Positions 775 to 40,446 of a stretch of 44,789 bases of DNA are shown here, in pieces. Each line of letters opens with the position of its first letter. Position 1 is the stretch's first letter. The notes below the pieces were generated by a model. That model was not told where the DNA came from and did no database searches. It saw only the letters and a program-made list of their open reading frames with translations. Source of the stretch: Vectrevirus PDP21P6; sequence record OZ035822.1; one strand, given 5' to 3'. A program made the position numbers and the translations under genes.

Positions 775-2659
775 AGAATCACAGGCAGAGGCATTAAAGC
801 GGTGGGAAAACCTTAAAGAACTACAAGACACTTTTAAATATACAGCGGAAGGTTTGCTTCTCTTTGCAGACACAGTTATTCATAACTTGATTGCAGGCAA
901 CCCTCATCTGATTCGTATGCAGGCTGATATCTTGAAGTTCCTATTCTACGGACACAAATATCGCCTCATCGAAGCGCCTCGTGGTATCGCTAAGACAACA
1001 CTATCAGCAATCTATACGGTATTCCGTATTATTCATGAACCGCATAAGCGTATCATGGTTGTGTCACAAAATGCTAAGCGAGCAGAGGAAATCGCAGGTT
1101 GGGTGGTGAAAATCTTTCGTGGCCTAGACTTCCTTGAGTTTATGCTGCCGGATATCTACGCAGGGGACCGTGCATCCGTTAAAGCATTTGAGATTCATTA
1201 CACCCTACGTGGTAGCGATAAGTCCCCCTCTGTATCCTGTTACTCAATCGAAGCAGGTATGCAGGGTGCTCGTGCTGATATTATTCTAGCGGATGACGTT
1301 GAATCGATGCAGAATGCTCGTACAGCAGCAGGCCGTGCATTGCTTGAGGAGTTGACCAAGGAATTTGAATCTATTAACCAATTTGGTGACATCATCTACC
1401 TTGGGACACCTCAGAACGTAAACTCTATCTACAATAACTTACCTGCTCGTGGTTACTCTGTTCGTATCTGGACTGCACGTTATCCTTCAGTGGAGCAGGA
1501 GCAATGCTATGGTGACTTCCTTGCACCTATGATTGTGCAGGATATGAAGGACAACCCCGCACTTCGCTCTGGTTATGGGTTGGACGGTAACAGTGGTGCA
1601 CCTTGCGCACCTGAAATGTACGATGATGAAGTGCTGATTGAGAAGGAAATCTCTCAGGGTGCGGCTAAGTTCCAGCTTCAGTTCATGCTTAACACTCGCA
1701 TGATGGATGCTGACAGATACCCACTTCGTCTAAACAATCTCATCTTCACTTCATTCGGTACTGAGGAAGTCCCTGTGATGCCTACGTGGAGCAACGACTC
1801 CATCAACATCATTGGAGATGCACCGAAGTATGGCAATAAACCTACAGACTTCATGTATCGACCTGTGGCTCGCCCCTATGAATGGGGTGCTGTTACCCGC
1901 AAGATTATGTATATCGACCCAGCGGGCGGCGGTAAGAATGGAGATGAAACGGGTGTAGCGATTGTCTTCCTGCACGGCACATTCATTTACGTGTATCAGT
2001 GCTTCGGCGTGCCAGGCGGATACCGCGAATCGTCCCTGAATCGCATTGTGCAGGCCGCAAAGCAGGCTGGTGTTAAAGAGGTATTCATTGAAAAGAACTT
2101 TGGTCATGGCGCGTTTGAGGCGGTAATTAAGCCTTACTTTGAACGAGAATGGCCTGTGACTCTGGAGGAGGATTACGCCACCGGACAGAAAGAGTTGCGT
2201 ATCATTGAGACGCTAGAGCCACTCATGGCGGCCCACAGGCTCATCTTTAACGCAGAGATGGTGAAATCGGACTTTGATTCGGTACAGAACTATCCGCTTG
2301 AGCTACGCATGTCCTACAGCCTTTTCAATCAAATGTCGAACATCACGATTGAGAAGAACAGCCTCCGGCACGATGACCGCTTAGACGCTCTGTATGGCGC
2401 TATACGGCAATTAACTTCTCAGATAGACTATGATGAGGTTACACGGATTAATCGCCTCAGAGCGCAGGAGATGCGCGATTACATCCATGCTATGAACACA
2501 CCTCACCTCCGTAGGGCGATGCTCTATGGAGATTATGGCACTGAGCGAAGAGTAACCAACACTTCCGTGGCTATGCAGCAAAGAGTGTACGGTCAGAATT
2601 ACAGGAGTAAATCGGCAAATCGAAATACACTTTCTGCAAGGATTTCAAGGACTTATTAA
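761..2659 (+). CDS. terminase large subunit (DNA maturase B)
   Basis: ATG 761 with AGGAG RBS 748-752; deviant Walker A PRGIAKTT and Walker B IILADDVE typical of T7 gp19-like terminases; 632 aa. Confidence 0.85.
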   Translation: MAKARESQAEALKRWENLKELQDTFKYTAEGLLLFADTVIHNLIAGNPHLIRMQADILKFLFYGHKYRLIEAPRGIAKTTLSAIYTVFRIIHEPHKRIMVVSQNAKRAEEIAGWVVKIFRGLDFLEFMLPDIYAGDRASVKAFEIHYTLRGSDKSPSVSCYSIEAGMQGARADIILADDVESMQNARTAAGRALLEELTKEFESINQFGDIIYLGTPQNVNSIYNNLPARGYSVRIWTARYPSVEQEQCYGDFLAPMIVQDMKDNPALRSGYGLDGNSGAPCAPEMYDDEVLIEKEISQGAAKFQLQFMLNTRMMDADRYPLRLNNLIFTSFGTEEVPVMPTWSNDSINIIGDAPKYGNKPTDFMYRPVARPYEWGAVTRKIMYIDPAGGGKNGDETGVAIVFLHGTFIYVYQCFGVPGGYRESSLNRIVQAAKQAGVKEVFIEKNFGHGAFEAVIKPYFEREWPVTLEEDYATGQKELRIIETLEPLMAAHRLIFNAEMVKSDFDSVQNYPLELRMSYSLFNQMSNITIEKNSLRHDDRLDALYGAIRQLTSQIDYDEVTRINRLRAQEMRDYIHAMNTPHLRRAMLYGDYGTERRVTNTSVAMQQRVYGQNYRSKSANRNTLSARISRTY

Positions 2660-2680
2660 TTACTGGACACTATAGAAGGA
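2658..2680 (+). promoter_or_regulatory. phage RNAP promoter
   Basis: AATTACTGGACACTATAGAAGGA, +1 G at 2675, directly after terL stop. Confidence 0.7.
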
Positions 2681-2751
2681 AGGCCCAGATAATAAGAGAA
2701 ATAACAAGGATAATATAGGTTAACCTAGGTTATATAGGTATGCCTTAGTAT

Positions 2752-2771
2752 GGGTGTACTCCTGTACACCC
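2752..2771 (+). promoter_or_regulatory. leader stem-loop (possible RNase III site or mRNA-stabilising hairpin)
   Basis: perfect inverted repeat GGGTGTAC-tcct-GTACACCC in the 5' UTR downstream of the 2658 promoter. Confidence 0.4.
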
Positions 2772-2813
2772 TATTCCTTACTTCCTTACTATACTTACAT
2801 AATAGGAGAGAGA

Positions 2814-3092
2814 ATGTCTAATAGTTATAGTACACAACCCCTTACCGGTAAGTCTGCTCGTAAGCAGATACAACCTGTGAGTGAAGCCCTGATGCTTCCT
2901 GTAGTTTACGAGGACACTGTTGAGAAGAAAGGTGATGTTATTAATGATGCCACCAAATCAGGTAAGCAGAAAGGAGCCATGGTGTGTCTTGATACACATG
3001 ATACACTGGTTATTGCTATCGCAGTTGATGGCAAAGAAGATTCCAATTGGCTGACCACGTTATTAGCGGTCACAACTATTACCCCAGCTTAA
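2814..3092 (+). CDS. hypothetical protein, tandem paralog A
   Basis: ATG 2814 with AGGAGAG RBS; 92 aa; shares LPVV..KK.D.IN..SGKQKG.MV...L.IAIA...W..T...TP.A pattern with next ORF. Confidence 0.6.
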   Translation: MSNSYSTQPLTGKSARKQIQPVSEALMLPVVYEDTVEKKGDVINDATKSGKQKGAMVCLDTHDTLVIAIAVDGKEDSNWLTTLLAVTTITPA

Positions 3093-4434: not shown

Positions 4435-6342
4435 ATGGCTAAATTAACCAAACCTAATACTGAAGGAATCTTGCATAAGGAAGACTCTTTGTATGAGTAC
4501 CTTGATGCGAGAGAGAGTATAGTTTTAACATCAAAGCCGTTTGGTGCAGTAGGTGATGCTACTACTGATGATACGGAGGTTATAGCTGCTTCACTAAACT
4601 CTCAAAAAGCTGTCACAGTCTCAGACGGTGTATTCTCTAGCTCTGGTATTAATAGTAATTACTGTAACTTAGACGGTAGAGGTAGCGGGGTGCTAAGTCA
4701 CCGTTCCAGTACAGGTAACTACTTAGTATTTAACAATCTACGTGCAGGTCGCTTAAGTAATATTACGGTAGAGAGTAATAAGGCGACTGATGATACTCAG
4801 GGGCAGCAGGTATCTCTTGCTGGTGGCAGTGATGTTACTGTAAGTGACGTTAACTTCTCAAACGTTAAAGGTACTGGTTTCAGTTTAATAGCATACCCTA
4901 ATGGTGCGCAACCTAATGGGCTTATGATTAAAGGCATTCGAGGTAGCTACTCTGGCTATGCTACTAATAAGGCTGCTGGATGCGTACTTGCTGACTCCTC
5001 AGTTAACTCTCTCATAGATAACGTCATTGCTAAGAGCTATCCTCAGTTCGGAGCTGTAGAGCTGAAAGGTACAGCCAGTTATAACATAGTAAGTAATGTT
5101 ATAGGGGCAGATTGCCAGCATGTAACTTACAACGGCACTGAAGGGCCAATAGCTCCTTCTAATAACCTTATCAAGGGGGTGATGGCTAATAACCCTAAGT
5201 ATGCAGCGGTTGTTGCAGGAAAAGGAAGTACGAACTTAATCTCAGACGTGCTCGTAGATTACTCAACTTCTGATGCTAGGCAGGCTCATGGTGTTACCGT
5301 AGAAGGATCTGATAACGTCATAAATAATGTGCTTATGTCAGGATGTGATGGTACTAACTCTTTAGGACAAGGGCAGACTGCTACAATTGCACGCTTTATA
5401 GGTACAGCTAATAACAACTATGCGTCTGTATTTCCTAGCTACAGTGCTACAGGTGTTATTACCTTCGAACCCGGCTCTACCCGTAACTTCGTAGAGGTAA
5501 AGCACCCTGGCAGGAGAAACGACCTTCTCAGTTCTGCTAGTACTATTGACGGTGCAGCTACTATTGACGGCACTAGTAATAGTAACGTAGTGCACGCACC
5601 TGCATTAGGACAGTACATAGGTAGTATGTCAGGTAGGTTCGAATGGCGGATTAAGTCCATGTCACTCCCTTCAGGCGTTCTTACTTCTGCTGATAAGTAC
5701 AGAATGCTTGGAGATGGTGCTGTGTCATTAGCTGTAGGTGGGGGCACTTCTTCTCAAGTTCGCCTATTTACTTCTGATGGTACTTCTCGGACAGTGTCCC
5801 TCACCAACGGTAACGTGCGTCTTTCTACCAGTAGCACAGGCTTTTTGCAGTTAGGCGCTGATGCAATGACCCCAGACAGTACTGGTACATACGCATTAGG
5901 TTCCGCCAGCCGAGCATGGTCTGGCGGTTTTACTCAAGCAGCATTCACTGTTACCTCAGATGCTCGGTGTAAAACAGAACCTCTTACTATCTCAGATGCC
6001 TTACTGGATGCTTGGTCTGAAGTTGACTTTGTGCAGTTTCAGTATTTGGATCGTGTTGAGGAGAAGGGTGCAGACTCAGCTAGATGGCACTTCGGTATCA
6101 TCGCTCAGCGAGCTAAGGAGGCTTTCGAACGTCACGGTATAGATGCACATCGCTATGGCTTCTTGTGCTTCGACAGTTGGGATGATGTATACGAGGAAGA
6201 TGCCGATGGCTCTCGTAAACTGATTACACCAGCAGGTTCCCGCTACGGTATTCGTTACGAGGAAGTGCTGATATTAGAGGCTGCGTTGATGCGGAGGACT
6301 ATTAAGCGTATGCAGGAAGCACTAGCTTCCCTGCCTAAGTAA
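4435..6342 (+). CDS. tailspike 1 (beta-helix depolymerase-like) with C-terminal intramolecular chaperone domain
   Basis: ATG 4435 with AGGAGA RBS; N-terminal GAVGDATTDDT pectate-lyase-like signature; C-terminal SDARCK...HFGIIAQRAKEAF segment resembles peptidase S74 autocleaving chaperone. Confidence 0.8.
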   Translation: MAKLTKPNTEGILHKEDSLYEYLDARESIVLTSKPFGAVGDATTDDTEVIAASLNSQKAVTVSDGVFSSSGINSNYCNLDGRGSGVLSHRSSTGNYLVFNNLRAGRLSNITVESNKATDDTQGQQVSLAGGSDVTVSDVNFSNVKGTGFSLIAYPNGAQPNGLMIKGIRGSYSGYATNKAAGCVLADSSVNSLIDNVIAKSYPQFGAVELKGTASYNIVSNVIGADCQHVTYNGTEGPIAPSNNLIKGVMANNPKYAAVVAGKGSTNLISDVLVDYSTSDARQAHGVTVEGSDNVINNVLMSGCDGTNSLGQGQTATIARFIGTANNNYASVFPSYSATGVITFEPGSTRNFVEVKHPGRRNDLLSSASTIDGAATIDGTSNSNVVHAPALGQYIGSMSGRFEWRIKSMSLPSGVLTSADKYRMLGDGAVSLAVGGGTSSQVRLFTSDGTSRTVSLTNGNVRLSTSSTGFLQLGADAMTPDSTGTYALGSASRAWSGGFTQAAFTVTSDARCKTEPLTISDALLDAWSEVDFVQFQYLDRVEEKGADSARWHFGIIAQRAKEAFERHGIDAHRYGFLCFDSWDDVYEEDADGSRKLITPAGSRYGIRYEEVLILEAALMRRTIKRMQEALASLPK

Positions 6343-6349
6343 GCAACAG

Positions 6350-6372
6350 GCAGTGCGTAAGCACTGCTTTTC
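6350..6372 (+). terminator. intrinsic terminator-like hairpin
   Basis: GCAGTGC-gtaa-GCACTGC followed by TTTTCACGCAACTTTTCTT. Confidence 0.55.
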
Positions 6373-6427
6373 ACGCAACTTTTCTTAAAGGTTATCATGG
6401 TGGTAGCCTTTCAGAAAAGGAGGTTAC

Positions 6428-8224
6428 ATGCTTCAAAGATTAAGCACTGCCTTGGTGCGGTATAAAAGTAAAATGTCAGGTGCAATAGGTCGTATATTGC
6501 AAGAAAGACTAGAAGATACGTTAAATGCAAAAGACTTTGGTGCAAAATGTAATGGAGTGGATGATGATACAATCCCTCTCAACAATGCAGCAACAGCAGC
6601 ACGCCTTAAAGGAGTCAAACTCGTAATAACAGGGTCTTGCCTAACAACTGACACAGTTAACTTTAGAGAGGTACTGCTAGAGGCATCAAGTGCTACATTT
6701 ATTATTAAACACGAGGGTGTTGGTGTTATCTTGGGTGGTAATGCAAGTGTGCACAATAACCCCAAGCAAGAGTTTGGTATGACAGAAAGACTTGTTGGGT
6801 CTGCATCTCTAGACACCCCTGATGTACGTATAATGGGTGCCAAGTGCCAACACATTAGCATAGAGAAGTCTGATTACCTTCAGCTATATGCAGATTCAGA
6901 TGAATCAGTATATGAAAAGGACTACTCTATCGCGTATTCCACTTTTACCTTAAAGTATGTTAAAACAATCAACATACGCGGGATTAATCGTGGTTGGATT
7001 AATGAGAACCAGTTCTTCTTAAATAGAACACATTTTGTGACAATACAAGATGGCAATTACTCTCATAACCACAATAAATTCTTTGGTGGCACTATGGAAG
7101 AGAAAGGTGCTATAGATATACAGAGAGGTCATAATAATCACTTCTTTGGGCTTCGATTCGAAAGAGATGGCTCTAAGCCAGATAGAACACTAGACATCAA
7201 GTTTGGTTCTTATACATGGAATAATTCAATTGAAGCATCGTGGCTTAGCTCTGCTGCATATAGCAACGAACCATATAACCCAAATAATCTTGTCACTGTT
7301 ACAGATTTAGGTAGAGGTAATGCTGTACGCCATATACAAGAAGATTTAACAGATGAGATCCCTTTGCTTTCACTAAGTGGAAAGGCAGACTACATCTCTA
7401 GTACCAACCTAGGTACTGTAAGCCAACCTGTTGTTATAACTAACTTCCCTAATATATATAATATTAGACACCTAGTATCAAGCAAGTTTTCTGTTGTAAG
7501 AAATTTCTACCCTATATGGGAGTCTGGTAATTTAGAGGTAAGGAATGGAGACTTATTCACATTCTGCTCTGATGTACCTATCTTCCGTATGCGTCTATTT
7601 ATATTAGATGCGCAAGGTAATGTAATCACTGAGCAATTAGATGATGATGTATCATTCCCTGGTAGTTCTTGGAATGCACAATTAAGTATGTATACAAATA
7701 CTACCAATATTGATGTTGCTAAAATACGTGTCACTAATAGTTCTCGTATTAAATACATTCGTCTTGTCTTGATGTCTGGTGGTTCATCTCAAGATAGAGT
7801 CTTTGAATATGCAAGAGTGACTGCAAGATACTATAAGTATTCAAGCTCAACACCTCGTAAGAATATGGATGTTGCCTTAACCTCTTGCTCTGCTATTATG
7901 CCTTATAAGGGCGATGCAGAGATGCAATATATTGGTTACGGTCTGCCTGTTGTTAAGATGGAAGATACGACTAAGAAGGTTAATATAACACGTAATAGGT
8001 ATTCTGTTATTAATGTGTCTGGTTCTTCTATTAAGGTAAGGGTTTCAGGTAGTCTTATATCCGCAGACTCTAACGACTTACATCTTGTATATACAGAGGG
8101 TTCCGCTAATAAAATTATACCTATTCAGTCTTTATCGGATGATACTATTACTTTAACTTCTACTGCACCTACTACTATAGTAGCTAATAGCATGGTAGAT
8201 GTAGTTTGTACAAAGCAGGTGTGA
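6428..8224 (+). CDS. tailspike 2 (beta-helix depolymerase-like)
   Basis: ATG 6428 with AGGAGG RBS; N-terminal DFGAKCNGVDDDT pectate-lyase-like signature; 598 aa; no adaptor domain. Confidence 0.75.
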   Translation: MLQRLSTALVRYKSKMSGAIGRILQERLEDTLNAKDFGAKCNGVDDDTIPLNNAATAARLKGVKLVITGSCLTTDTVNFREVLLEASSATFIIKHEGVGVILGGNASVHNNPKQEFGMTERLVGSASLDTPDVRIMGAKCQHISIEKSDYLQLYADSDESVYEKDYSIAYSTFTLKYVKTINIRGINRGWINENQFFLNRTHFVTIQDGNYSHNHNKFFGGTMEEKGAIDIQRGHNNHFFGLRFERDGSKPDRTLDIKFGSYTWNNSIEASWLSSAAYSNEPYNPNNLVTVTDLGRGNAVRHIQEDLTDEIPLLSLSGKADYISSTNLGTVSQPVVITNFPNIYNIRHLVSSKFSVVRNFYPIWESGNLEVRNGDLFTFCSDVPIFRMRLFILDAQGNVITEQLDDDVSFPGSSWNAQLSMYTNTTNIDVAKIRVTNSSRIKYIRLVLMSGGSSQDRVFEYARVTARYYKYSSSTPRKNMDVALTSCSAIMPYKGDAEMQYIGYGLPVVKMEDTTKKVNITRNRYSVINVSGSSIKVRVSGSLISADSNDLHLVYTEGSANKIIPIQSLSDDTITLTSTAPTTIVANSMVDVVCTKQV

Positions 8225-8570: not shown

Positions 8571-8984
8571 CCAAAGTCAAAATTTTGATATAGGCGTGTG
8601 TCAGCTCTCTCGCCCTCGCCCTCGCCGGGTTGTCCCCATAGGGTGGCCTGAGGGAATCCGTCGGAGACGGGTAGGGCTGATGTACTCCTTGTACTAGCTT
8701 AGTAGTACACAAGGGCAGGCCGTACTAGTTAGCTGGTACAGCCTAGTCTTTGCTCATGTACTAGCAAGGTGGAACGCCAGAGAGCGCCTAGGACGGCCTA
8801 GGGATGGCTTAGTGTTTGACAAGGTGAATGCCTTAGTGAAGCCTCTTAGTGCATTCCTGAGGCTATTCAGGGCCATTCCTGAGCGTTTGACAGGGTGGGC
8901 GTGGGTGGGCTATCTGTTCGTTTCGCTCCACTACGTTACGCTACACTCACCGCGCTCGTGTATCCTTGGTATAAACCTGATGGA

Positions 8985-9095
8985 TAGCTTAGGTTAACCT
9001 TAGTGGACTACCTTAATTAAAGCCTTAGTGCTTCACTTAGTATCAGCTTAGTAGTGTACCTTAGTTGGTCTTAGTGAATAGCCTTAGTGATTGCA
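8985..9095 (+). repeat. periodic array of CTTAGT(G) heptamer motifs
   Basis: about nine CTTAGT/CTTAGTG copies spaced 10-13 bp apart, with more copies scattered from 8393 to 10300; non-coding. Confidence 0.6.
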
Positions 9096-9316
9096 TAGCT
9101 AAAGCTATAAGATGCCAATAGGTCGCGGTCAGTAGACCGCTAAGAAAGAGAATAGTAATAAGATGCAGTAGGAGGGACACCAGAACACGGGACAACCTGG
9201 CCTCTCCTGTCTCTGTATCTATTACTTTCCTTAGTCTCACACGTTAGACAACCTAGGTTTCTCTTAGTAATTGTGACCTGTATCACATAAATAATCTATC
9301 TTAGTGAAACTTAGTG

Positions 9317-9345
9317 TTGACACAGGCAATCAACAGCTATACATT
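9317..9345 (+). promoter_or_regulatory. host sigma70-type early promoter
   Basis: TTGACA, 17-bp spacer, TACATT. Confidence 0.55.
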
Positions 9346-12018: not shown

Positions 12019-12080
12019 CCTTATCGGTGGCATCTTCTTAGGTGTCACCTATTAAGGTTTCTTTAACGGGAGTACACAAA

Positions 12081-14708
12081 ATGCAGGACTTATACGCTAT
12101 CCAGCTTCAGCTTGAAGAAGAGATGTTTAATGGTGGTATCCGTCGCTTTGAAGCAGACCAACAACGCCAGATTGCATCCGGTAATGAATCCGACACGGCA
12201 TGGAATCGCCGCTTATTGTCTGAGTTAATCGCACCGATGGCGGAAGGTATTCAGGCTTATAAGGAAGAGTATGAAGGCAAGCGCGGTCGTGCACCGCGTG
12301 CATTGGCTTTCATTAACTGCGTAGAAAATGAAGTGGCAGCGTATATCACGATGAAAATCGTAATGGATATGCTTAATAATGATGTGACTTTGCAGGCTAT
12401 AGCCATGAATGTAGCTGACCGCATAGAAGACCAAGTGCGCTTCAGCAAGCTGGAAGGACACGCCGCCAAATACTTTGAGAAAGTTAAGAAGTCACTTAAG
12501 GCAAGTAAGACTAAATCATATCGCCATGCGCACAACGTAGCGGTCGTGGCTGAGAAGTCAGTAGCTGACCGTGACGCTGATTTCTCTCGCTGGGAGGCGT
12601 GGCCTAAAGATACCTTGCTACAAATCGGTATGACCTTGCTAGAAATACTGGAGAATAGCGTATTCTTCAACGGGCAGCCTGTTTTCCTCCGCACCTTGCG
12701 CACTAACGGCGGCAAGCATGGCGTTTACTACTTACAGACTAGCGAACACGTGGGTGAATGGATAACTGCATTTAAAGAGCACGTAGCGCAATTAAGTCCT
12801 GCCTATGCGCCTTGCGTTATTCCTCCTCGTCCGTGGGTTTCTCCGTTTAATGGTGGCTTCCATACCGAGAAGGTGGCGAGTCGTATTCGTCTGGTTAAAG
12901 GAAACCGCGAGCACGTCCGCAAGCTGACCAAAAAGCAAATGCCAGCGGTTTACAAGGCTGTTAACGCTTTGCAGGCGACTAAGTGGCAGGTTAATAAAGA
13001 GGTTTTGCAGGTAGTAGAGGACGTTATCCGTCTCGACCTTGGTTATGGTGTGCCTTCCTTTAAACCACTCATCGACCGTGAGAACAAGCCAGCTAATCCA
13101 GTGCCGTTAGAGTTCCAGCACCTGCGAGGCCGTGAACTTAAAGAGATGCTAACGCCGGAACAATGGCAAGCCTTCATCAACTGGAAAGGCGAATGTACCA
13201 AGCTGTATACCGCTGAAACTAAGCGCGGCAGCAAGTCGGCGGCAACCGTTCGCATGGTCGGGCAGGCCCGTAAATACAGCCAGTTTGACGCAATATACTT
13301 CGTGTATGCACTGGATAGCCGTTCACGCGTTTATGCGCAATCTAGCACGCTCTCGCCGCAATCAAACGACCTAGGCAAGGCGTTACTGCGTTTCACCGAA
13401 GGGCAGCCTCTAAATAACTCTGAGGCGCTTAAGTGGTTTTTGGTGAACGGTGCTAATAACTGGGGTTGGGATAAGAAAACTTTCGACGTCCGCACCGCTA
13501 ACGTGTTAGATGGTGAATTCCAAGACATGTGCCGCGATATTGCAGCCGACCCGCTGACTTTTACTCAATGGGTGAATGCTGACTCCCCTTATGGCTTCCT
13601 TGCATGGTGCTTTGAATATGCGCGTTATCTGGATGCACTGGATGAAGGCACGCAAGACCAATTCATGACGCACCTACCCGTCCATCAAGACGGTAGTTGC
13701 TCTGGTATCCAGCACTATAGCGCGATGTTACGCGATGAAGTAGGTGCGAAAGCAGTAAACCTTAAGCCTTCTGACTCCCCTCAAGATATTTATGGCGCGG
13801 TTGCGCAGGTTGTTATCCAGAAGAATTACGCTTACATGAATGCAGATGATGCAGAGACGTTCACATCTGGAAGCGTCACACTTACAGGTGCAGAACTGCG
13901 TAGCATGGCTAGCGCATGGGATATGATAGGTATCACTCGCGGATTAACCAAAAAGCCGGTAATGACCTTGCCGTATGGCTCTACCCGCTTAACATGCCGT
14001 GAGTCAGTGATTGATTATATTGTTGATTTGGAAGAAAAAGAGGCACAAAGGGCTATTGCAGAAGGGCGGACGGCTAATCCGGTGCACCCTTTTGATAATG
14101 ACCGTAAAGATTATTTAACACCGGGCGCAGCTTATAACTACATGACCGCGTTAATTTGGCCTTCTATCTCTGAGGTTGTTAAAGCACCTATAGTGGCGAT
14201 GAAAATGATTCGCCAACTCGCACGATTCGCAGCTAAAAGAAACGAAGGGTTAGAATATCCCTTGCCTACTGGCTTTATCTTGCAACAAAAGATAATGGCT
14301 ACCGACATGCTACGCGTATCCACTTGCTTGATGGGTGAAATCAAGATGAGTCTACAGATTGAGACTGATGTAGTGGATGAAACGGCAATGATGGGCGCTG
14401 CCGCTCCCAACTTTGTTCACGGGCATGATGCTAGTCATCTCATCCTGACTGTATGTGACCTCGTTGATAAGGGCATTACATCCATCGCAGTCATCCATGA
14501 TTCCTTTGGTACTCATGCAGGCCGTACAGCAGACCTGCGGGATAGCTTAAGGGCAGAAATGGTGAAGATGTATCAAGGTCGTAATGCCCTGCAAAGCCTG
14601 TTAGATGAGCATGAAGAACGCTGGTTAGTAGACACCGGAATCCAAGTGCCAGAGCAAGGAGAATTTGACCTTAACGAAATCTTAGTATCTGACTATTGCT
14701 TCGCATAA
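12081..14708 (+). CDS. single-subunit DNA-directed RNA polymerase (T7/SP6 family)
   Basis: motifs [37 protein letters not shown] and C-terminal ...YCFA; ATG 12081; N-terminus [16 protein letters not shown] resembles SP6-type RNAPs from memory. Confidence 0.95.
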
Positions 14709-14716
14709 TATTAATA

Positions 14717-14747
14717 GGCCATTCCTTCGGGAGTGGCCTTTTCTTTT
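14717..14747 (+). terminator. intrinsic terminator after the RNAP gene (early terminator analog)
   Basis: GGCCATTCC-ttcg-GGAGTGGCC stem-loop followed by TTTTCTTTT. Confidence 0.7.
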
Positions 14748-14781
14748 ACCTACTACCGGTAACATTTCATTAACATAAAGT

Positions 14782-14797
14782 GTCTCACATGTGAGAC
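14782..14797 (+). repeat. 16-bp perfect palindrome GTCTCACATGTGAGAC (copy 1)
   Basis: exact palindrome, 3 bp upstream of promoter 14800. Confidence 0.8.
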
Positions 14798-14799
14798 TT

Positions 14800-14822
14800 A
14801 TTTACCGGACACTATAGGATAG
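14800..14822 (+). promoter_or_regulatory. phage RNAP promoter (variant)
   Basis: ATTTACCGGACACTATAGGATAG, +1 G at 14817. Confidence 0.6.
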
Positions 14823-14963
14823 CCGTCGGAGACGGGAAAGAAAGGGAAGATAAAGGATATAAAAGGAAGTAATAGGTATTAAAGGTTATATAGGTTATCT
14901 AGGAATACCTATTACCTCCTTCCTTCCTCTTATTACTACTTAGAGGAAGGGCAGATCTAGGTT

Positions 14964-14979
14964 GTCTCACATGTGAGAC
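14964..14979 (+). repeat. 16-bp perfect palindrome GTCTCACATGTGAGAC (copy 2)
   Basis: exact palindrome, 5 bp upstream of promoter 14985. Confidence 0.8.
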
Positions 14980-14984
14980 TTCGT

Positions 14985-15007
14985 ATTTACCGGACAGTAT
15001 AGATAAG
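14985..15007 (+). promoter_or_regulatory. phage RNAP promoter (variant)
   Basis: ATTTACCGGACAGTATAGATAAG, +1 G at 15002; upstream of gene 1.1 homolog. Confidence 0.5.
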
Positions 15008-15032
15008 ACTAACTTACTTTGGAGATTTAACC

Positions 15033-15161
15033 ATGCGTAACTTTGAGAAGATGACCCGTAAAGCTAACCGTTTTGACATGGAAGAAGGGCAGAAGAAAGG
15101 CAAGAAGCTGAATAAACCTGTCCGTGACCGTGCATCTAAACGCGCAGCGTGGGAGTTCTAA
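15033..15161 (+). CDS. gene 1.1-like small basic protein
   Basis: 42-aa ORF MRNFEKMTRKANRFDMEEGQKKGKKLNKPVRDRASKRAAWEF, GGAG RBS; same size and position after origin as T7 gp1.1. Confidence 0.55.
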   Translation: MRNFEKMTRKANRFDMEEGQKKGKKLNKPVRDRASKRAAWEF

Positions 15162-15164
15162 GTT

Positions 15165-15383
15165 ATGGCTAAATATAGAATTAAGACATGCTTAAACAGT
15201 CACGGGCACGAGTGCTATGTAGTACAGCGTAAAGTGTTATGTTTCTTATGGGTGACTTGCATGATACCTATTGGGTTCACTGATACTGAAGCAATCTTCG
15301 GTACAGAAGATGATGCATATAGGTTCATTGCCAAGCGCAGAAAAGGTGATTCTTATAGACACAGAATTATTAAGGTAAACTAA
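15165..15383 (+). CDS. hypothetical protein
   Basis: 72-aa ORF with GGAG RBS. Confidence 0.5.
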   Translation: MAKYRIKTCLNSHGHECYVVQRKVLCFLWVTCMIPIGFTDTEAIFGTEDDAYRFIAKRRKGDSYRHRIIKVN

Positions 15384-17371
15384 TGGCTATTATTAATAAC
15401 ATTCCGTGCCCTGCCTGCCAGAAGAATGGACACGATAAATCCGGCAATCATCTTATGATATTTGATGACGGTGCTGGCTACTGTAACCGTGGTCACTTCC
15501 ATGATAATGGCAAGCCTTACTACCATAAGCCCGAAGGTGGCATCGAGATAACAGAGTTACCTATCACTGGCAACATCAAATATACACCTTCTCAGTTTAA
15601 AGAGATGGAGAAGGAAGGGAAGATAAGCGACCCTAAGTTGCGCGCCATCGCACTTGGTGGTATGCGTATGAAAGACCGTTGGGAGGTCATGAATGAGCAA
15701 GAAAGGGCAGAGCAAGAAGCAGAGTGGAAACTTGATGTTGAATGGTTCCTCACGCTTAAGCGTAAGAATCTTGTTTCCCGACACATTCGCGGCGACATTT
15801 GCGCATTGTATGATGTACGTGTCGGACATGATGAAGAGGGTAGAGTCTCACGGCATTACTATCCACGCTTCGAGAAAGGTGAACTAGTAGGCGCTAAGTG
15901 TCGCACATTACCTAAAGACTTTAAGTTTGGTCATTTAGGTAAACTATTTGGTATGCAAGATCTTTTCGGTATGAATACTTTGTCTCACGTGTTAGACAAG
16001 GGAAGACGAAAGGATTGCTTGCTTATTGTGGGTGGGGAACTGGATGCACTAGCAGCGCAGCAGATGCTCCTTGATTCTGCCAAGGGTACTAAGTGGGAAG
16101 GGCAGCCTTACCATGTATGGTCTGTCAATAAGGGTGAATCTTGCCTTGAAGAAATTGTGCAGAACCGTGAGCACATAGCCCAATTCAAGAAGATTATTTG
16201 GGGCTTTGATGGGGATGAGGTAGGACAGAAGCAGAACCAACAAGCGGCTCGCCTGTTTCCCGGCAAATCCTACATCCTTGAATACCCTTCTGGTTGCAAA
16301 GATGCCAACAAGGCATTGATGGCTGGTAAGGCCAAAGAATTTGTGGATGCTTGGTTTAATGCAAAGTCATCTGATGAAGTCTTTGGTAGCCAGATTAAAT
16401 CTATCGCATCTCAAAGGGATAAGCTCAAGGCTGCACGTCCAGAACAAGGGCTGTCATGGCCTTGGCCTAAGCTAAACAAGGTAACGCTGGGTATCCGTAA
16501 GAATCAGCTTATCATTGTAGGTGCAGGCTCTGGTGTGGGTAAGACTGAGTTTCTCCGTGAAGTAGTTAAGCATCTCATTGAAGAACACGGTGAATCTGTA
16601 GGCATCATTTCTACAGAAGACCCGATGGTCAAAGTGTCCCGTGCTTTTATCGGCAAATGGATTGATAAGCGTATTGAGTTACCACCAACCAACGACCCGA
16701 AAGAAGATGGATACCGTGAGGTGTTCGACTATACCGAGGAAGAAGCTAACGCCGCCATTGATTATGTAGCCGATACAGGGAAGCTGTTTGTAGCTGACCT
16801 AGAAGGTGACTACTCGATGGAGAAGGTAGAGCAGACCTGCCTTGAGTTTGAGGCTATGGGTATTTCCAATATCATCATTGATAACTTAACGGGGATTAAA
16901 TTAGATGAGCGTGCTTTTGGTGGGAAGGTTGGTGCACTTGATGAATGCGTCAAGCGGATTGGTACTATCAAAGACCGACACCCAGTTACTATATTCCTTG
17001 TATCACACCTTACACGTCCTCCGGCAAACCGTACCCAACACGAAGAAGGTGGCGAGGTTATCCTTTCTGACTTCCGAGGCTCAGGGGCTATCGGATTCTG
17101 GGCATCTTACGCCTTGGGGATTGAGCGTAACACAAGAGCTGAAACGCTTGATGAAAGAACTACCACGTACATTTCATGTGTCAAAGACCGCGACCAAGGT
17201 ATCTACACCGGAACCAAGATCATGCTTAAGGGTGACATTCAGACCGGACGTTTGAGAGAACCTCAAGCCCGTACTAGGTCATTTGATACAGGCGAAGCAA
17301 GGCAACAAGAAGTGCCTGATTTACCGGACACTATAGAAGAGACTAACTTCGATGAAGAAAGTGAGTTCTGA
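15383..17371 (+). CDS. DNA primase/helicase (T7 gp4-like)
   Basis: N-terminal zinc ribbon CPACQKNGHDKSG...YCNRGHFH, Walker A GAGSGVGKT, acidic C-terminal tail ending ...NFDEESEF. Confidence 0.9.
   Translation: MAIINNIPCPACQKNGHDKSGNHLMIFDDGAGYCNRGHFHDNGKPYYHKPEGGIEITELPITGNIKYTPSQFKEMEKEGKISDPKLRAIALGGMRMKDRWEVMNEQERAEQEAEWKLDVEWFLTLKRKNLVSRHIRGDICALYDVRVGHDEEGRVSRHYYPRFEKGELVGAKCRTLPKDFKFGHLGKLFGMQDLFGMNTLSHVLDKGRRKDCLLIVGGELDALAAQQMLLDSAKGTKWEGQPYHVWSVNKGESCLEEIVQNREHIAQFKKIIWGFDGDEVGQKQNQQAARLFPGKSYILEYPSGCKDANKALMAGKAKEFVDAWFNAKSSDEVFGSQIKSIASQRDKLKAARPEQGLSWPWPKLNKVTLGIRKNQLIIVGAGSGVGKTEFLREVVKHLIEEHGESVGIISTEDPMVKVSRAFIGKWIDKRIELPPTNDPKEDGYREVFDYTEEEANAAIDYVADTGKLFVADLEGDYSMEKVEQTCLEFEAMGISNIIIDNLTGIKLDERAFGGKVGALDECVKRIGTIKDRHPVTIFLVSHLTRPPANRTQHEEGGEVILSDFRGSGAIGFWASYALGIERNTRAETLDERTTTYISCVKDRDQGIYTGTKIMLKGDIQTGRLREPQARTRSFDTGEARQQEVPDLPDTIEETNFDEESEF
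17319..17341 (+). promoter_or_regulatory. phage RNAP promoter embedded in 3' end of primase-helicase gene
   Basis: ATTTACCGGACACTATAGAAGAG, +1 G at 17336. Confidence 0.6.
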
Positions 17372-17388: not shown

Positions 17389-17419
17389 GCTTGTCTCACA
17401 TGTGAGACAGGCTCTTATT
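17389..17419 (+). terminator. terminator-like hairpin containing palindrome copy 3
   Basis: GCTTGTCTCACATGTGAGACAGGC (core GTCTCACATGTGAGAC at 17393-17408) followed by TCTTATT. Confidence 0.55.
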
Positions 17420-18614: not shown

Positions 18615-18645
18615 GGTTGTCTCACGTGTGAGACAGCCTTTTCAT
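18615..18645 (+). terminator. terminator-like hairpin containing palindrome copy 4
   Basis: GGTTGTCTCACGTGTGAGACAGCC (core GTCTCACGTGTGAGAC at 18619-18634) followed by CTTTTC. Confidence 0.55.
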
Positions 18646-21329: not shown

Positions 21330-21590
21330 ATGATTAAATACACTGCTTATCAGTTAACTAAAGATCGTAAGATAGGTGTTGAGGTTAAAGCTTGGAATGA
21401 AGGACACATCACTGTAGTCATAGAGTGTCGCCAAGATAATGGTATGATATTAAGAAGCTACCGTTGCTTCACCAAATTACGCTGCAAAGATTTAACTGAA
21501 GAATTATTCTTACGTTGTATTGTTGAATCTATTAAGCTTATTAGACCTTACGCTAAGAAAGTTGTAGGCAATGTCACAGTAGTACATTGA
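21330..21590 (+). CDS. hypothetical protein
   Basis: 86-aa ORF. Confidence 0.5.
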   Translation: MIKYTAYQLTKDRKIGVEVKAWNEGHITVVIECRQDNGMILRSYRCFTKLRCKDLTEELFLRCIVESIKLIRPYAKKVVGNVTVVH

Positions 21591-21612
21591 TTTACTGGAC
21601 ACTATAGAAGGA
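21590..21612 (+). promoter_or_regulatory. phage RNAP promoter
   Basis: ATTTACTGGACACTATAGAAGGA, +1 G at 21607, followed by AT-rich CCTAGG-containing leader. Confidence 0.7.
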
Positions 21613-21676
21613 AAGCCTAGGTAACCTAGGTTTATAAGGTAGTATAGGTAATTAAGTAAATATAGGAGATATAAAT

Positions 21677-22054
21677 ATGTCTATGGTAACTACTCTGGTA
21701 TTCGTGGCTCAATACTTTCGTGGCTTGGCGACTAAGTTCAAGAACAAAGCTATTAAGCATATTGAAAACCGCATCTCTGCAATAGAAGACGAGCAAGTCC
21801 AAGTAGAGGAACATCGTAGTTCTCAGATGATTGACCTGCATAACCGTCTGTACAAAGATCGTGATGAGATGCGTCACCGTCATGCGAAGGAAGTTGAAGA
21901 CATGCTTAACCGCCATGCGGAAGAACAAGCTAAGTTGGAAACTACTTTCCATGAGAATAAACGCAGCATTGCATTAGTGCATCAAGCTGCATCTGACAGT
22001 CTGAAGAAAGAGATTGTTATGCTGGAGATTGAACTGGACAACCTGACTAAGTAA
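21677..22054 (+). CDS. hypothetical predicted coiled-coil protein
   Basis: 125-aa ORF with AGGAG RBS. Confidence 0.5.
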   Translation: MSMVTTLVFVAQYFRGLATKFKNKAIKHIENRISAIEDEQVQVEEHRSSQMIDLHNRLYKDRDEMRHRHAKEVEDMLNRHAEEQAKLETTFHENKRSIALVHQAASDSLKKEIVMLEIELDNLTK

Positions 22055-23473: not shown

Positions 23474-23489
23474 GTCTCACGTGTGAGAC
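23474..23489 (+). repeat. 16-bp perfect palindrome GTCTCACGTGTGAGAC (copy 5)
   Basis: exact palindrome (CACGTG centre variant), 15 bp upstream of promoter 23505. Confidence 0.8.
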
Positions 23490-37458: not shown

Positions 37459-40406
37459 TGGCAATTGAGCGACAAGCAGTACAAGGTCTGCCACAAGTGC
37501 AGGCCACTTCTCCTAATGTCATGACCTTTGCACCTCAACAAGTGGGAGGTGTGGAGGCGGGCGTAGCTTCTACCTCCGGTAGTCGATTTATCGAAGACCT
37601 TATTCGAGCAGCCAGCAGTGTAGCTGATGTTACCACTGGTATCCTTAATCAGAAGATTGAGGAGGATAAGGTTGTTCAAATGGAACGGGCATATAATGGA
37701 TTAATGCCTTCTGAGGATGCAACTCGTGGTGGCGCTCGTGCTAACATGCTTGTCAAAGCTCAACTGCTAGCTAATGATGAAGCAGCACGAATGAAAGACA
37801 TGGCTACTCGTTTCCAAGGAACAGATGACGAGTGGACACAACTCATGGTTGACTCTCGTAATGAGATGCAGAATAAGCTGTTCCAGCAATACCCTGAGTT
37901 GCAAGGTGACAAAGATACTATGCGTATGGTCACTAATGTCTTCCAAGAACAGCAGCCTCAGATTTGGGCTACACGAACCCAGCATAAACTTGACCGTGAA
38001 CAAGCAGACCGTGAGGACACCTTTGACGGGCGAGTGGCTTCTACTTGGGATTCTAGTATTGACCCAGAGGCTTCTGGTTATGCCCTACAGGAGCGAATCC
38101 GCGAGGGGTTTACTCAAGGGCTATTACCTGAGCAGATGCATAAGAAGCTGGTAGAGCGAGCTATTTCACTTGCTCAGGGTGGTGATATTAGCATGGCTGA
38201 AGCCTTGAAGTACGTGAAGGACGATAAGGGTGTTTCTGTCTATGCTAAGAATCCGCAGCTTATCACAGCTATCACTAATGGTAATGCAGTTTGGGCTAGG
38301 AATAATGTTGCTGATGTGACTCGCATGTCTTTTGAAGTCAAAGAGTCCTATCTTGCAGGTGACTTGACGGATGAAGAATTACTGGAGCGAGCACAGCACA
38401 TTAATAGCCTGACAGGGAACTCTGTCTTCTCTAATCCAGAACTAGAAGCACTGATGCGACAACGAGCTAAGCAGAATGCAGAGCTAGGTGCAATGCAGGA
38501 TATGCGACGTGAACTTTACTCTGATCGCATGACTGGCTTCCAAGGTAAGACAGATAAAGAGAAGAAAGCTTACGTTGACGTTATCAAACAAGATAGCCAA
38601 CTTTATGCAGACCAGCAAATCAAACAACGTGGCTTGGACCCTTACAGTCAAGAGGCTGAAGCTATTCGTGGTGCAGTGGAAGTGCAGCGCCTGCAATTCA
38701 TGAACTCCAAAGGCTTAGTGGATGATACCTTTGAGTCTCGTATCAAAGCCATGGAGTCTATGCTATCGCCTGAGCACTTTGCCAGTGGCGAACCACAGGA
38801 GTTAATGACTATTCGTCAGTTGTGGGAACAGTTACCAGAAGAAAGCCGAGGTGTCTTTGGTGATACGGTGAATGGCTATATGGATAACTACAACACTGCA
38901 TTACAAATGGGAGAGACGCCTTTGCAGGCTGCAAGGTTTGCCCGTGAAGCACAGCAGAAATTCTCTCGTACTGAGAAAGAAACCAAGAAGTTCAACTCAG
39001 CTATTGGAGATGCACTGGATGAGGTATCGGGTGCTGGCTGGTTTGATGGTAAAACCGAAGTGTCTGACTTAGGTAAAGCTATTGCAGAAGAAGAGTTACG
39101 AGCTAAGGCCAATATGCTGTGGTCTAGCGGTATGCGTAACATGGATTCCATCAAGAAGGCTTTAATTACTTGGGGCAATAAACGCTACACTCAATCAGAG
39201 GATGCAAAGACTTCCGGTGGTTATTTCATTAAAGGTGATTACACTTCTGCATCTGACATGCTTATGTCTGTTGGGAAAGGTGTAAACCCTACCGATGTAC
39301 CTCTGGCGCTTGGTAGGTATGTAGAAACACAAATGCCAGAATTGAAGAAGGAACTTCAAGAGTGGGAAACTAAGGATGATGTATACATTGATTACAATGA
39401 ACAGAAAGGTACTTTCGTGATTCGTGCTGGTGCAGCAGGTCGCCCTCTTTCTGGAGTAATCCCTGTCACCTCTTTAGATACCACTTCACTGCTAGACTCT
39501 GCCTATCAGAAGAAAGTAGAAGAACGAGATAAAGGTGAATATGTTCACCCATATCGTACAGATATCGGTACACAAGAACCTATGCCAGCTAAGCCAACTG
39601 CCAAGGATATTGGTAAATTTGGACTAGCTAATTTCCTCATGTCTTCTGCCTTTGCTTCTGGTGAGAATCTACCTTCTAACTTCGAGATTAACTATAGAGG
39701 CAATATGCAACAATTCTATGACAAGCTAGCTATGGATGAGAATAAAGATAAAGTTGGCTTTAATAAGGCAACTGGAACCTTTACTCCATATAAAGACGCT
39801 CGCGGTGAGTCTATCGGTTACGGTCATTTCTTAACGGAAGAAGAGAAGCGAAACGGGTATATTAAGATTGGTGATGAACTAGTTCCCTATCGAGGGTCTA
39901 TGTCTCAGCTTACAGAGAGCAAGGCTCGCGCTCTTATGGAGCAAGATGCTAAGAAGCATGTGCCTCCTACTCGTGACTGGAAGATTCCGTTTGACCAGAT
40001 GCATCCTGCACAGCAACGTGGCTTGATGGATTTAACCTACAATTTAGGTAAAGGTGGAATCCAGAACTCACCGCGTGCTCTTGCTGCATTCAAAGCTGGT
40101 AAGCTTACGGAAGGCTTTATCGAAATGCTGGGCACTGCATCAAGTGAAGGTAAGCGTATTCCTGGCCTACTGAAGCGACGCGCTGAGGCATACAATATGG
40201 CATCTGCTGGTGGTGTGCCTAAGATTACCGAAGTGGAGACTCGTGAAGATGGCTCCATGTGGGTTAGGTTTGGTGGACCTATGCCAGCAGGTTCTGTCTC
40301 GGCATGGACTCATAAACGTATTGGCGAGGATGGTTGGTATCAGGTTTATGAGTCTGCACCTACCAAGTTAGCTAAAGGTTCTAAGGTAGGTAAAGTTAAG
40401 TTGTAG
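37458..40406 (+). CDS. internal virion protein (gp15-like) with C-terminal GH24-like lysozyme domain
   Basis: 982 aa; C-terminal segment YKDARGESIGYGHFLT ... LMDLTYNLGKGG ... GLLKRRAEAYN resembles T4-type lysozyme. Confidence 0.8.
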   Translation: MAIERQAVQGLPQVQATSPNVMTFAPQQVGGVEAGVASTSGSRFIEDLIRAASSVADVTTGILNQKIEEDKVVQMERAYNGLMPSEDATRGGARANMLVKAQLLANDEAARMKDMATRFQGTDDEWTQLMVDSRNEMQNKLFQQYPELQGDKDTMRMVTNVFQEQQPQIWATRTQHKLDREQADREDTFDGRVASTWDSSIDPEASGYALQERIREGFTQGLLPEQMHKKLVERAISLAQGGDISMAEALKYVKDDKGVSVYAKNPQLITAITNGNAVWARNNVADVTRMSFEVKESYLAGDLTDEELLERAQHINSLTGNSVFSNPELEALMRQRAKQNAELGAMQDMRRELYSDRMTGFQGKTDKEKKAYVDVIKQDSQLYADQQIKQRGLDPYSQEAEAIRGAVEVQRLQFMNSKGLVDDTFESRIKAMESMLSPEHFASGEPQELMTIRQLWEQLPEESRGVFGDTVNGYMDNYNTALQMGETPLQAARFAREAQQKFSRTEKETKKFNSAIGDALDEVSGAGWFDGKTEVSDLGKAIAEEELRAKANMLWSSGMRNMDSIKKALITWGNKRYTQSEDAKTSGGYFIKGDYTSASDMLMSVGKGVNPTDVPLALGRYVETQMPELKKELQEWETKDDVYIDYNEQKGTFVIRAGAAGRPLSGVIPVTSLDTTSLLDSAYQKKVEERDKGEYVHPYRTDIGTQEPMPAKPTAKDIGKFGLANFLMSSAFASGENLPSNFEINYRGNMQQFYDKLAMDENKDKVGFNKATGTFTPYKDARGESIGYGHFLTEEEKRNGYIKIGDELVPYRGSMSQLTESKARALMEQDAKKHVPPTRDWKIPFDQMHPAQQRGLMDLTYNLGKGGIQNSPRALAAFKAGKLTEGFIEMLGTASSEGKRIPGLLKRRAEAYNMASAGGVPKITEVETREDGSMWVRFGGPMPAGSVSAWTHKRIGEDGWYQVYESAPTKLAKGSKVGKVKL

Positions 40407-40417
40407 TACCTAACTCA

Positions 40418-40446
40418 AGGCTTGTCTCACATGTGAGACAGGTCTT
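40418..40446 (+). terminator. terminator-like hairpin containing palindrome copy 6
   Basis: AAGGCTTGTCTCACATGTGAGACAGGTCTTT (core GTCTCACATGTGAGAC at 40424-40439). Confidence 0.5.

Follow-up and report, generated by a model that had tools for sequence, protein, structure and literature searches.

The non-coding DNA between the RNA polymerase (RNAP) gene and the gene 1.1 homolog of Vectrevirus PDP21P6 (OZ035822.1) certainly forms the conserved beginning of the middle transcription unit and, judging from its sequence, represents the SP6-group counterpart of the T7 gene 1/gene 1.1 control region. The analogy with T7 makes it somewhat probable that the same DNA also serves as a T7-type, transcription-activated origin of replication, one of what appear to be two or three such origin-like sites in the genome; that it would be the primary origin seems to us rather doubtful. 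Directly downstream of the first of its two phage promoters we describe a new element, a phased array of seven TAGG units with a period of about 10 nt.

Organization of the region downstream of the RNA polymerase gene

The window (the whole 44,789-nt stretch of DNA that was analysed) is the entire genome of a K1E/K1-5/SP6-type phage (Vectrevirus), circularly permuted with respect to the K1E-type map, and its physical left end falls at about position 8608. The 1.1 kb around the two promoters shares 90-95% identity with Vectrevirus phages such as PDP21P3 and K1E (Autographiviridae, Molineuxvirinae). From left to right, the region and its borders contain the following features:

12042-14708: RNAP gene, with its stop codon at 14706-14708
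14716-14747, plus strand: early (host-type) intrinsic terminator, consisting of a hairpin (14716-14739, 10-bp stem, TTCG loop) and a T-run (14740-14747)
14782-14797, no strand assigned: palindrome copy 1 (GTCTCAC and GTGAGAC around a central AT), an exact GTCTCACATGTGAGAC, 2 nt upstream of P1
14800-14822, plus strand: phage promoter P1 (-17 to +6; +1 = G14817), ATTTACCGGACACTATAG at 14800-14817, C at -11, GGAUAG start
14823-14835, plus strand: 5-bp stem with a GGA loop (CCGTC-GGA-GACGG), +7 to +19 of the P1 transcript
14843-14906, plus strand: phased array of seven AGG-centred units, approximately (T/A)A(T/A)AGG(T/A)A, with a period of 9-11 nt, 72% AT and 73% purine
14863-14921, no strand assigned: inverted repeat/hairpin with 18-nt arms (14863-14880 and 14904-14921; 17/18 complementary) and a perfect 12-nt core, GTAATAGGTATT/AATACCTATTAC
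14922-14950, plus strand: second hairpin, CCTTCCTCT...AGAGGAAGG, 9-bp stem
14964-14979, no strand assigned: palindrome copy 2, an exact GTCTCACATGTGAGAC, 5 nt upstream of P2 and invariant in 11 Vectrevirus genomes
14985-15007, plus strand: phage promoter P2 (+1 = G15002), ATTTACCGGACAGTATAG at 14985-15002, C at -11, G at -5
15033-15161, plus strand: gene 1.1 homolog (42 aa), with the ribosome-binding site GGAG at 15021-15024

The terminator lies directly 3' of the RNAP stop codon and is kept in 22 of 22 related spacers, its stem sequences differing among them. On the other side, the open reading frame at 15033-15161 matches PF08200 (Phage_1_1; E = 8e-16; score 58.6 bits, cutoff 21) and shares 56% identity with T7 gene 1.1 (T7 6007-6126); it is followed by a 72-aa open reading frame and by the primase/helicase gene (15383-17371). 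Most of these elements had been picked out in a first-pass annotation, which listed an early terminator ahead of the region, two tandem variant phage promoters at 14800 and 14985, a palindrome ahead of each promoter, a 12-bp inverted repeat and a gene 1.1 homolog straight after the region. All of them were recovered here, the inverted repeat as the perfect core of longer arms.

The GenBank/RefSeq records of SP6, K1-5 and K1E carry no annotation inside the corresponding spacer. In SP6 (NC_004831.2), gene 9 (gp1.1, 6271-6468) is annotated as a 65-aa product from 6271, overlapping palindrome 2 and P2; homology to gene 1.1 starts only at 6340 (42 aa), and the annotated start is probably too far upstream. 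Close to the physical left end, about 15 copies of CTTAGTG occupy positions 8800-9320, ahead of the first strong promoter of host type (TTGACA-17-TATACA, near 9318).

Two variant phage promoters and a compensated leader stem-loop

Across the genome, 12 matches to the phage promoter were found against 0.04 expected. The strongest consensus copies carry a T at -11; P1, P2 and the promoter at 17319 carry a C at this position. By sequence match, both P1 and P2 are predicted rightward phage-RNAP promoters of the kind found at a T7-type origin. P1 is present in every genus examined and has a pi of 0.010 among 11 Vectrevirus genomes, and P2 is separated from the ATG of gene 1.1 by a leader of only 31 nt.

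The stem-loop at the 5' end of the P1 transcript is retained in all 22 spacers, where its middle pair is G-C in 17, A-T in four (from two lineages) and C-G in the remaining one; these changes are fully compensatory. The 14-mer CCGTCGGAGACGGG of this stem-loop has an exact second copy at 8658-8671, about 50 nt from the left genome end, which is peculiar to this genome and absent from that position in K1E, SP6, PM93 and phD2B.

A phased TAGG array follows the first promoter

The seven AGG triplets at 14843-14903 are spaced by 11, 10, 10, 9, 9 and 9 nt, and the units that surround them are similar to the -4 to +2 segment of the promoter (TATAGG). This chain after P1 is the longest for any trinucleotide genome-wide (block shuffles gave a chain of three in 165 of 200 cases and never one of seven), and TRF returned period 10 x 4.0 and period 9 x 3.6 on the array. 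Short direct repeats in helical phase are the hallmark of iterons, and the seven AGG-centred units, at 9-11 nt spacing, have this form. Seven units are also present in K1E, with six in SP6, five in PM93 and three in phD2B; across genera the AGG positions form near-invariant columns and the intervening bases are variable.

No other 60 nt of the genome are as rich in purines as the array tract (82%). A sponge for CsrA or Hfq in the purine-rich leader was considered and rejected, as it is AGG that is conserved and not GGA or A-R-N. The first-pass annotation had described the DNA between the promoters as AT-rich, a description that fits the core at 14840-14906 (72% AT over 67 nt, compared with 71% over 84 nt downstream of T7 phi1.1B) but not the whole P1-to-P2 interval, which is only moderately so (60% vs 55% for the genome). 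T7-type primase sites, 5'-(G/T)(G/T)GTC-3', occur in the spacer at 14780 and 14962 (the palindrome edges) and on the bottom strand at 14808 (inside P1); the array holds none by this T7-type consensus, which may not be that of this phage's primase.

The layout is shared by four genera and the whole spacer is constrained

The region was compared with 21 related IMG/VR loci and with the full genomes of K1E, SP6, Proteus phage PM93 and Lelliottia phage phD2B. The elements follow a common order: terminator, palindrome, P1, 5-bp stem with GGA loop, purine-rich repeats, pyrimidine-rich complement, second palindrome, P2, ribosome-binding site and gene 1.1. The second palindrome is missing in phD2B and PM93, and the rest of the order is common to all the sequences compared. 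The layout is kept across four genera, being found in 19 spacers from Vectrevirus, Zindervirus and Tuodvirus and in the Acadevirus PM93.

Among 11 Vectrevirus genomes, pi lies between 0.00 and 0.09 in every sub-region of the spacer (0.032 in palindrome 1, 0.000 in palindrome 2 and 0.049 in the array), as against 0.378 at the 4-fold sites of the RNAP gene. Since pi is low in every sub-region, the whole spacer is constrained at the sequence level; the region evolves about 8-fold more slowly than the neutral sites of the adjacent gene, and the spacer together with gene 1.1 forms the most conserved 500 bp within a 2.6-kb stretch. P1 is thus followed by some 170 nt of strongly constrained non-coding DNA that contains the 5' stem-loop, the seven TAGG decamers and the inverted repeat.

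Two lineages carry HNH homing-endonuclease genes in the interval from P2 to gene 1.1 (2560-2990 in one related locus, 6642-7055 in PM93), and both insertions leave the P1-array-P2 block undisturbed. Low-diversity patches were also seen inside the primase/helicase gene at 15586-15765 and 15946-16125 (pi 0.03-0.06 vs 0.13-0.15 nearby), the second of which encloses an internal palindrome.

A duplex-stability signature calibrated on T7 marks P1 but not P2

Nearest-neighbour duplex stability was calculated downstream of the promoters in 60-bp windows, and also in windows of 40, 80 and 100 bp, with DNA/DNA parameters that are reportedly those of SantaLucia from 1998. In T7, the least stable downstream DNA is found at phiOL, phi1.1B, phi6.5 and phiOR, all of which fall in the 0.32% least stable windows; when 80-100 bp windows are used, the top five consist of these four and phi1.1A, followed by a gap. 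Dunn and Studier are said to have counted phiOL, too, as a 'replication promoter' of T7 in 1983. The origins described for this phage are phi1.1A/B as primary and phiOR and phi6.5 as secondary (PMC8373140), and every one of them lies inside the top set.

A T7-type origin has AT-rich DNA of low stability directly downstream of its promoter, and in the window this is true of P1 and not of P2. P1, whose downstream windows belong to the 0.04-0.07% least stable, takes second place among the 12 promoters at 40, 60 and 80 bp and moves up to first place at 100 bp; only one 60-bp duplex window of the genome is less stable than the segment at 14847-14906 (dG = -64.3; 0.04% least stable). The rank of P1 is likewise first or second in K1E, SP6, phD2B and PM93. 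P2, on the other hand, has the most stable downstream DNA of the 12 promoters and comes last. By the sole signature that could be validated on T7, P1 and its array would be classed as origin-like, though not uniquely so.

Other indicators were tried and set aside. Raw GC skew is positive throughout the genome. The detrended GC-skew minimum of the window, K1E and SP6 lies 350-600 bp rightward of the spacer, which is the case in neither PM93 nor phD2B, and the keto-skew minimum falls in the DNA polymerase gene. The skew methods are mutually inconsistent, and we discarded skew as evidence because it places the T7 origin at 9.5 kb and 14.1 kb when the true origin is at 5.9 kb. R-loop thermodynamics, ranked with RNA/DNA and DNA/DNA nearest-neighbour values said to be those of Sugimoto from 1995 and SantaLucia from 1998, were also rejected as support: the rank is first or second genome-wide only in Vectrevirus (the window and K1E) and not in SP6, PM93, phD2B or at the T7 origins.

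Related promoter-plus-array modules elsewhere in the genome

Two further sites combine a phage promoter with a TAGG array:

2658-2815, plus strand: post-terminase module, with a promoter at 2658 (+1 = 2675), a TAGG array, the hairpin GGGTGTAC/GTACACCC, a pyrimidine tract and the next gene
21590-21691, plus strand: post-DNA-polymerase module, with a consensus promoter (+1 = 21607), five TAGG units and the least stable 60-bp duplex of the genome

In the stability ranking, the promoter with its +1 at 21607 leads at every window size (40, 60 and 80 bp) except 100 bp, where it is second; the one with its +1 at 2675 is third in the two shorter windows (40 and 60 bp) and fourth in the two longer ones (80 and 100 bp). 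The post-DNA-polymerase promoter is equal to or better than P1 in four of the five genomes and takes the first rank in four of five, which makes this module a candidate rival origin at least as good as P1, here and likewise in K1E, SP6 and PM93. Because this promoter scores as high as P1, and because the post-terminase promoter carries the same kind of array, the designation 'primary' is not supported for the region studied here. Dobbins et al. 2004, as reported in a secondary source, proposed an SP6 origin at gene 14, the DNA polymerase gene; as given there, this location is near the post-DNA-polymerase module that the stability test also flags.

The post-terminase module directly follows the terminase large-subunit gene, is also found in SP6, K1E, PM93 and phD2B, and occupies the same position as phiOR in T7. 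A GA dinucleotide repeat (2803-2814) covers the ribosome-binding site of the gene after this module, and its length depends on the genome, with aggagagagaATG here as against aggagagagagagagagagaATG in K1E (about 40180-40200).

The 16-bp palindrome belongs to a genome-wide family

The palindromes that precede P1 and P2 have further copies in the window:

Other palindrome copies: 9234-9249, 15982-15997, 17393-17408, 18619-18634, 23474-23489 and 40424-40439

In total, eight copies with at most two mismatches were found against 0.18 expected. One lies near the left end, two lie in the spacer, and the primase/helicase gene has one within it (codon ~200) and one past its end; the other three are found ahead of the small genes upstream of the DNA polymerase gene, ahead of a middle promoter and between two internal-virion-protein genes. 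The eight sites are common to the window, K1E and SP6; phD2B has nine copies that include them, PM93 has two, and the T7 genome has no equivalent family. The palindrome had initially been read as part of the origin architecture, a role that does not survive its distribution as a genome-wide element at eight syntenic sites: it is no evidence for an origin.

The arms of the palindrome are lineage-specific (GTCTCAC/GTGAGAC in Vectrevirus, GTC(C/T)AAC/GTTGGAC in the other genera) and identical among all the copies of one genome, and the central 2 nt vary freely. The coding copy (15968-16012, primase/helicase codons 196-210) tracks the consensus of its lineage through an Asn-to-His change and a synonymous TTG-to-TTA change; a perfect palindrome would create an in-frame TGA stop at this site, and a C.T mismatch remains. 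As the consensus is kept despite this mismatch, it is the half-site sequence and not the pairing that is preserved, which points to recognition of a half-site. The intergenic copies at 17393, 18619 and 40424 lie just upstream of ribosome-binding sites and have covarying flank extensions of 6-7 bp, G.U pairs and U-rich tails, features that point to a possible RNA hairpin or attenuator.

Palindrome and promoter are 1 to 18 nt apart. When 20 early and middle proteins were scanned against Pfam for a factor that might bind the palindrome or, as an initiator of the iteron type, the repeats, no DNA-binding domain came up except that of an HNH endonuclease, most of these proteins having no family match at all, and no mention of the palindrome sequences was found in the literature searched. 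An attempt to read fork polarity from the inverted left-end copy was abandoned, since the phD2B copy is forward and the T/C asymmetry of the half-sites (8 vs 2) is not significant.

Comparison with T7 and other transcription-primed origins

The region occupies the place of the T7 primary origin, downstream of the RNAP gene and upstream of gene 1.1, and shares with it two tandem class-II-type phage promoters and 60-85 bp of ~71-72% AT right after a promoter, which in both phages are among the least stable DNA of the genome. The internal arrangement is different. In T7 the order is phi1.1A, R1.1 hairpin, phi1.1B, AT-rich DNA and gene 1.1, whereas here it is P1, array with inverted repeat, P2, 31 nt and gene 1.1, so that the AT-rich element follows P1 and lies between the promoters instead of following both. 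The low-stability segment consists of seven phased TAGG decamers with 73% purine (58% in T7), the early terminator stands directly before the region (T7 TE is located after gene 1.3), and a palindrome without counterpart in T7 stands ahead of each promoter. The proposal that this DNA mirrors the T7 primary origin therefore stands for its position, its tandem promoters and the low-stability DNA after a promoter; it falls short in that the AT-rich DNA is found after P1 only and in that the same signature recurs at 21607 and 2675.

The T7 secondary origins and 'replication promoters' (phiOR, phi6.5 and phiOL) offer a further likeness, each being a phage promoter followed by DNA of very low stability, but the repeat unit (TATAGGTAA-like) that the SP6-group modules have in common is absent from these T7 sites. 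Origins primed by transcription through an RNA-DNA hybrid include ColE1, with RNA II, and the mitochondrial LSP-CSB system, which is primed by a T7-like RNA polymerase. As in these systems, P1 is followed by a purine-rich transcript that is predicted to favour the hybrid (first or second genome-wide in K1E and the window); unlike them, the region contains no G-run or quadruplex motif, and the hybrid-favouring rank is not high in SP6, PM93 and phD2B.

RNA processing and protein binding as alternative roles

The region may serve transcription and RNA processing only, with P1 and P2 as the first middle promoters, the structured leader between them as an R1.1 counterpart that controls the stability or processing of the gene 1.1/primase mRNA, and replication starting elsewhere. 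We consider this unlikely, though it deserves serious attention. The T7 segment between phi1.1A and phi1.1B, which we take to hold the RNase III site R1.1 of Dunn and Studier 1983, folds significantly (z = -3.4), and the segment termed AT-rich here sits at the R1.1 position and forms a hairpin of comparable standing between two promoters downstream of the RNAP gene: z is -3.1 for the fold of 14837-14955, the stem at 14863-14921 (17 bp plus an inner stem) has the form of the imperfect ~20 bp hairpin of an RNase III-type site, and a long hairpin recurs at this position in every lineage, with differing sequences. The fully compensatory changes in the 5' stem-loop also fit a role in the transcript. 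Unlike R1.1, however, the hairpin has no strand asymmetry that would favour the transcript, and early transcripts end at the terminator in front of it. The minus strand folds as well as the plus strand or better (-36.3 vs -36.0 kcal/mol), and there is therefore no plus-strand RNA signature; the plus-strand A.C mismatch of the inverted repeat is a G.U on the minus strand, and the arm changes within Vectrevirus are one-sided, without the compensation or G.U asymmetry that selection on the RNA strand would leave. From genus to genus it is the 10-nt phase of AGG, continuing across the loop, that stays constant, and not the pairing, and the sister modules share the array without a significant fold (z = -0.2). 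Rfam gave no family at gathering score for the spacer, its sub-threshold microRNA-precursor matches being merely hairpin-driven. Taken together, the strand, arm, phase and sister-module results favour a role at the DNA level rather than selection on the RNA strand.

Alternatively, the region could be a protein-controlled element, in which the palindromes, and perhaps the TAGG decamers, would be bound by a putative, probably phage-encoded factor that regulates or insulates P1 and P2 or marks replication or processing sites at the eight positions. The syntenic distribution of the palindrome in the window, K1E, SP6 and phD2B, the uniformity of its arms within a genome and their divergence between lineages around a free centre, the coding copy that follows the lineage consensus up to the limit set by the TGA codon while keeping the half-site and not the pairing, and the absence of such a family from T7 are all consistent with a dedicated factor. 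Against it, the variable spacing between palindrome and promoter is unlike that of a phased operator, the copies at 17393, 18619 and 40424 would fit an RNA hairpin or attenuator, the Pfam scan offered no candidate besides the HNH endonuclease, and PM93 possesses only two copies; we judge this explanation improbable.

Discussion

The transcription-activated origin that we somewhat favour for this region would operate as follows. The sequence shows early transcription by the host RNA polymerase ending at the terminator at 14716-14747 and the phage RNA polymerase then starting at the predicted weak-variant promoters P1 and P2, which open the DNA-metabolism unit (gene 1.1, gp8.5, primase/helicase). 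If T7 is a guide, P1 transcripts that cross the melt-prone, purine-rich segment may leave an RNA-DNA hybrid or a short transcript, which the phage DNA polymerase would extend rightward, after which the primase/helicase would load on the displaced strand. P2 would mainly supply the gene 1.1 mRNA, and the modules with +1 at 21607 and 2675 may function as alternative or secondary origins.

Several points weigh against the origin reading. Promoters are needed here anyway for gene expression, and AT-rich leaders are found before ordinary genes too; moreover, the melt-prone DNA lies between the promoters with none after P2, and the array contains no T7-type primase site. Experimental mapping or other data on the replication origins of SP6-group phages were not found in the literature searched. 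A protein-assisted variant of the T7 origin in the SP6 group, with the TAGG decamers as iterons and the palindrome, two of whose eight copies bracket this region, as the site of a co-evolved putative phage factor that links the use of promoters to the start of replication and perhaps to the boundaries of forks or transcripts, is conceivable, but we give it little credence.

Synteny with T7 would lead a specialist to expect such a region, but less so its phased TAGG arrays and the palindrome family that co-evolves. Phages of the SP6/K1 type have found use in phage therapy and as the source of a standard RNA polymerase for the laboratory. If the region proves to work as in T7, engineering and phage-dependent systems for plasmid replication could draw on a defined ~290-bp fragment. 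The duplex-stability ranking, which recovers the known origin promoters of T7, could in turn serve as a simple predictor of origins in other Autographiviridae.
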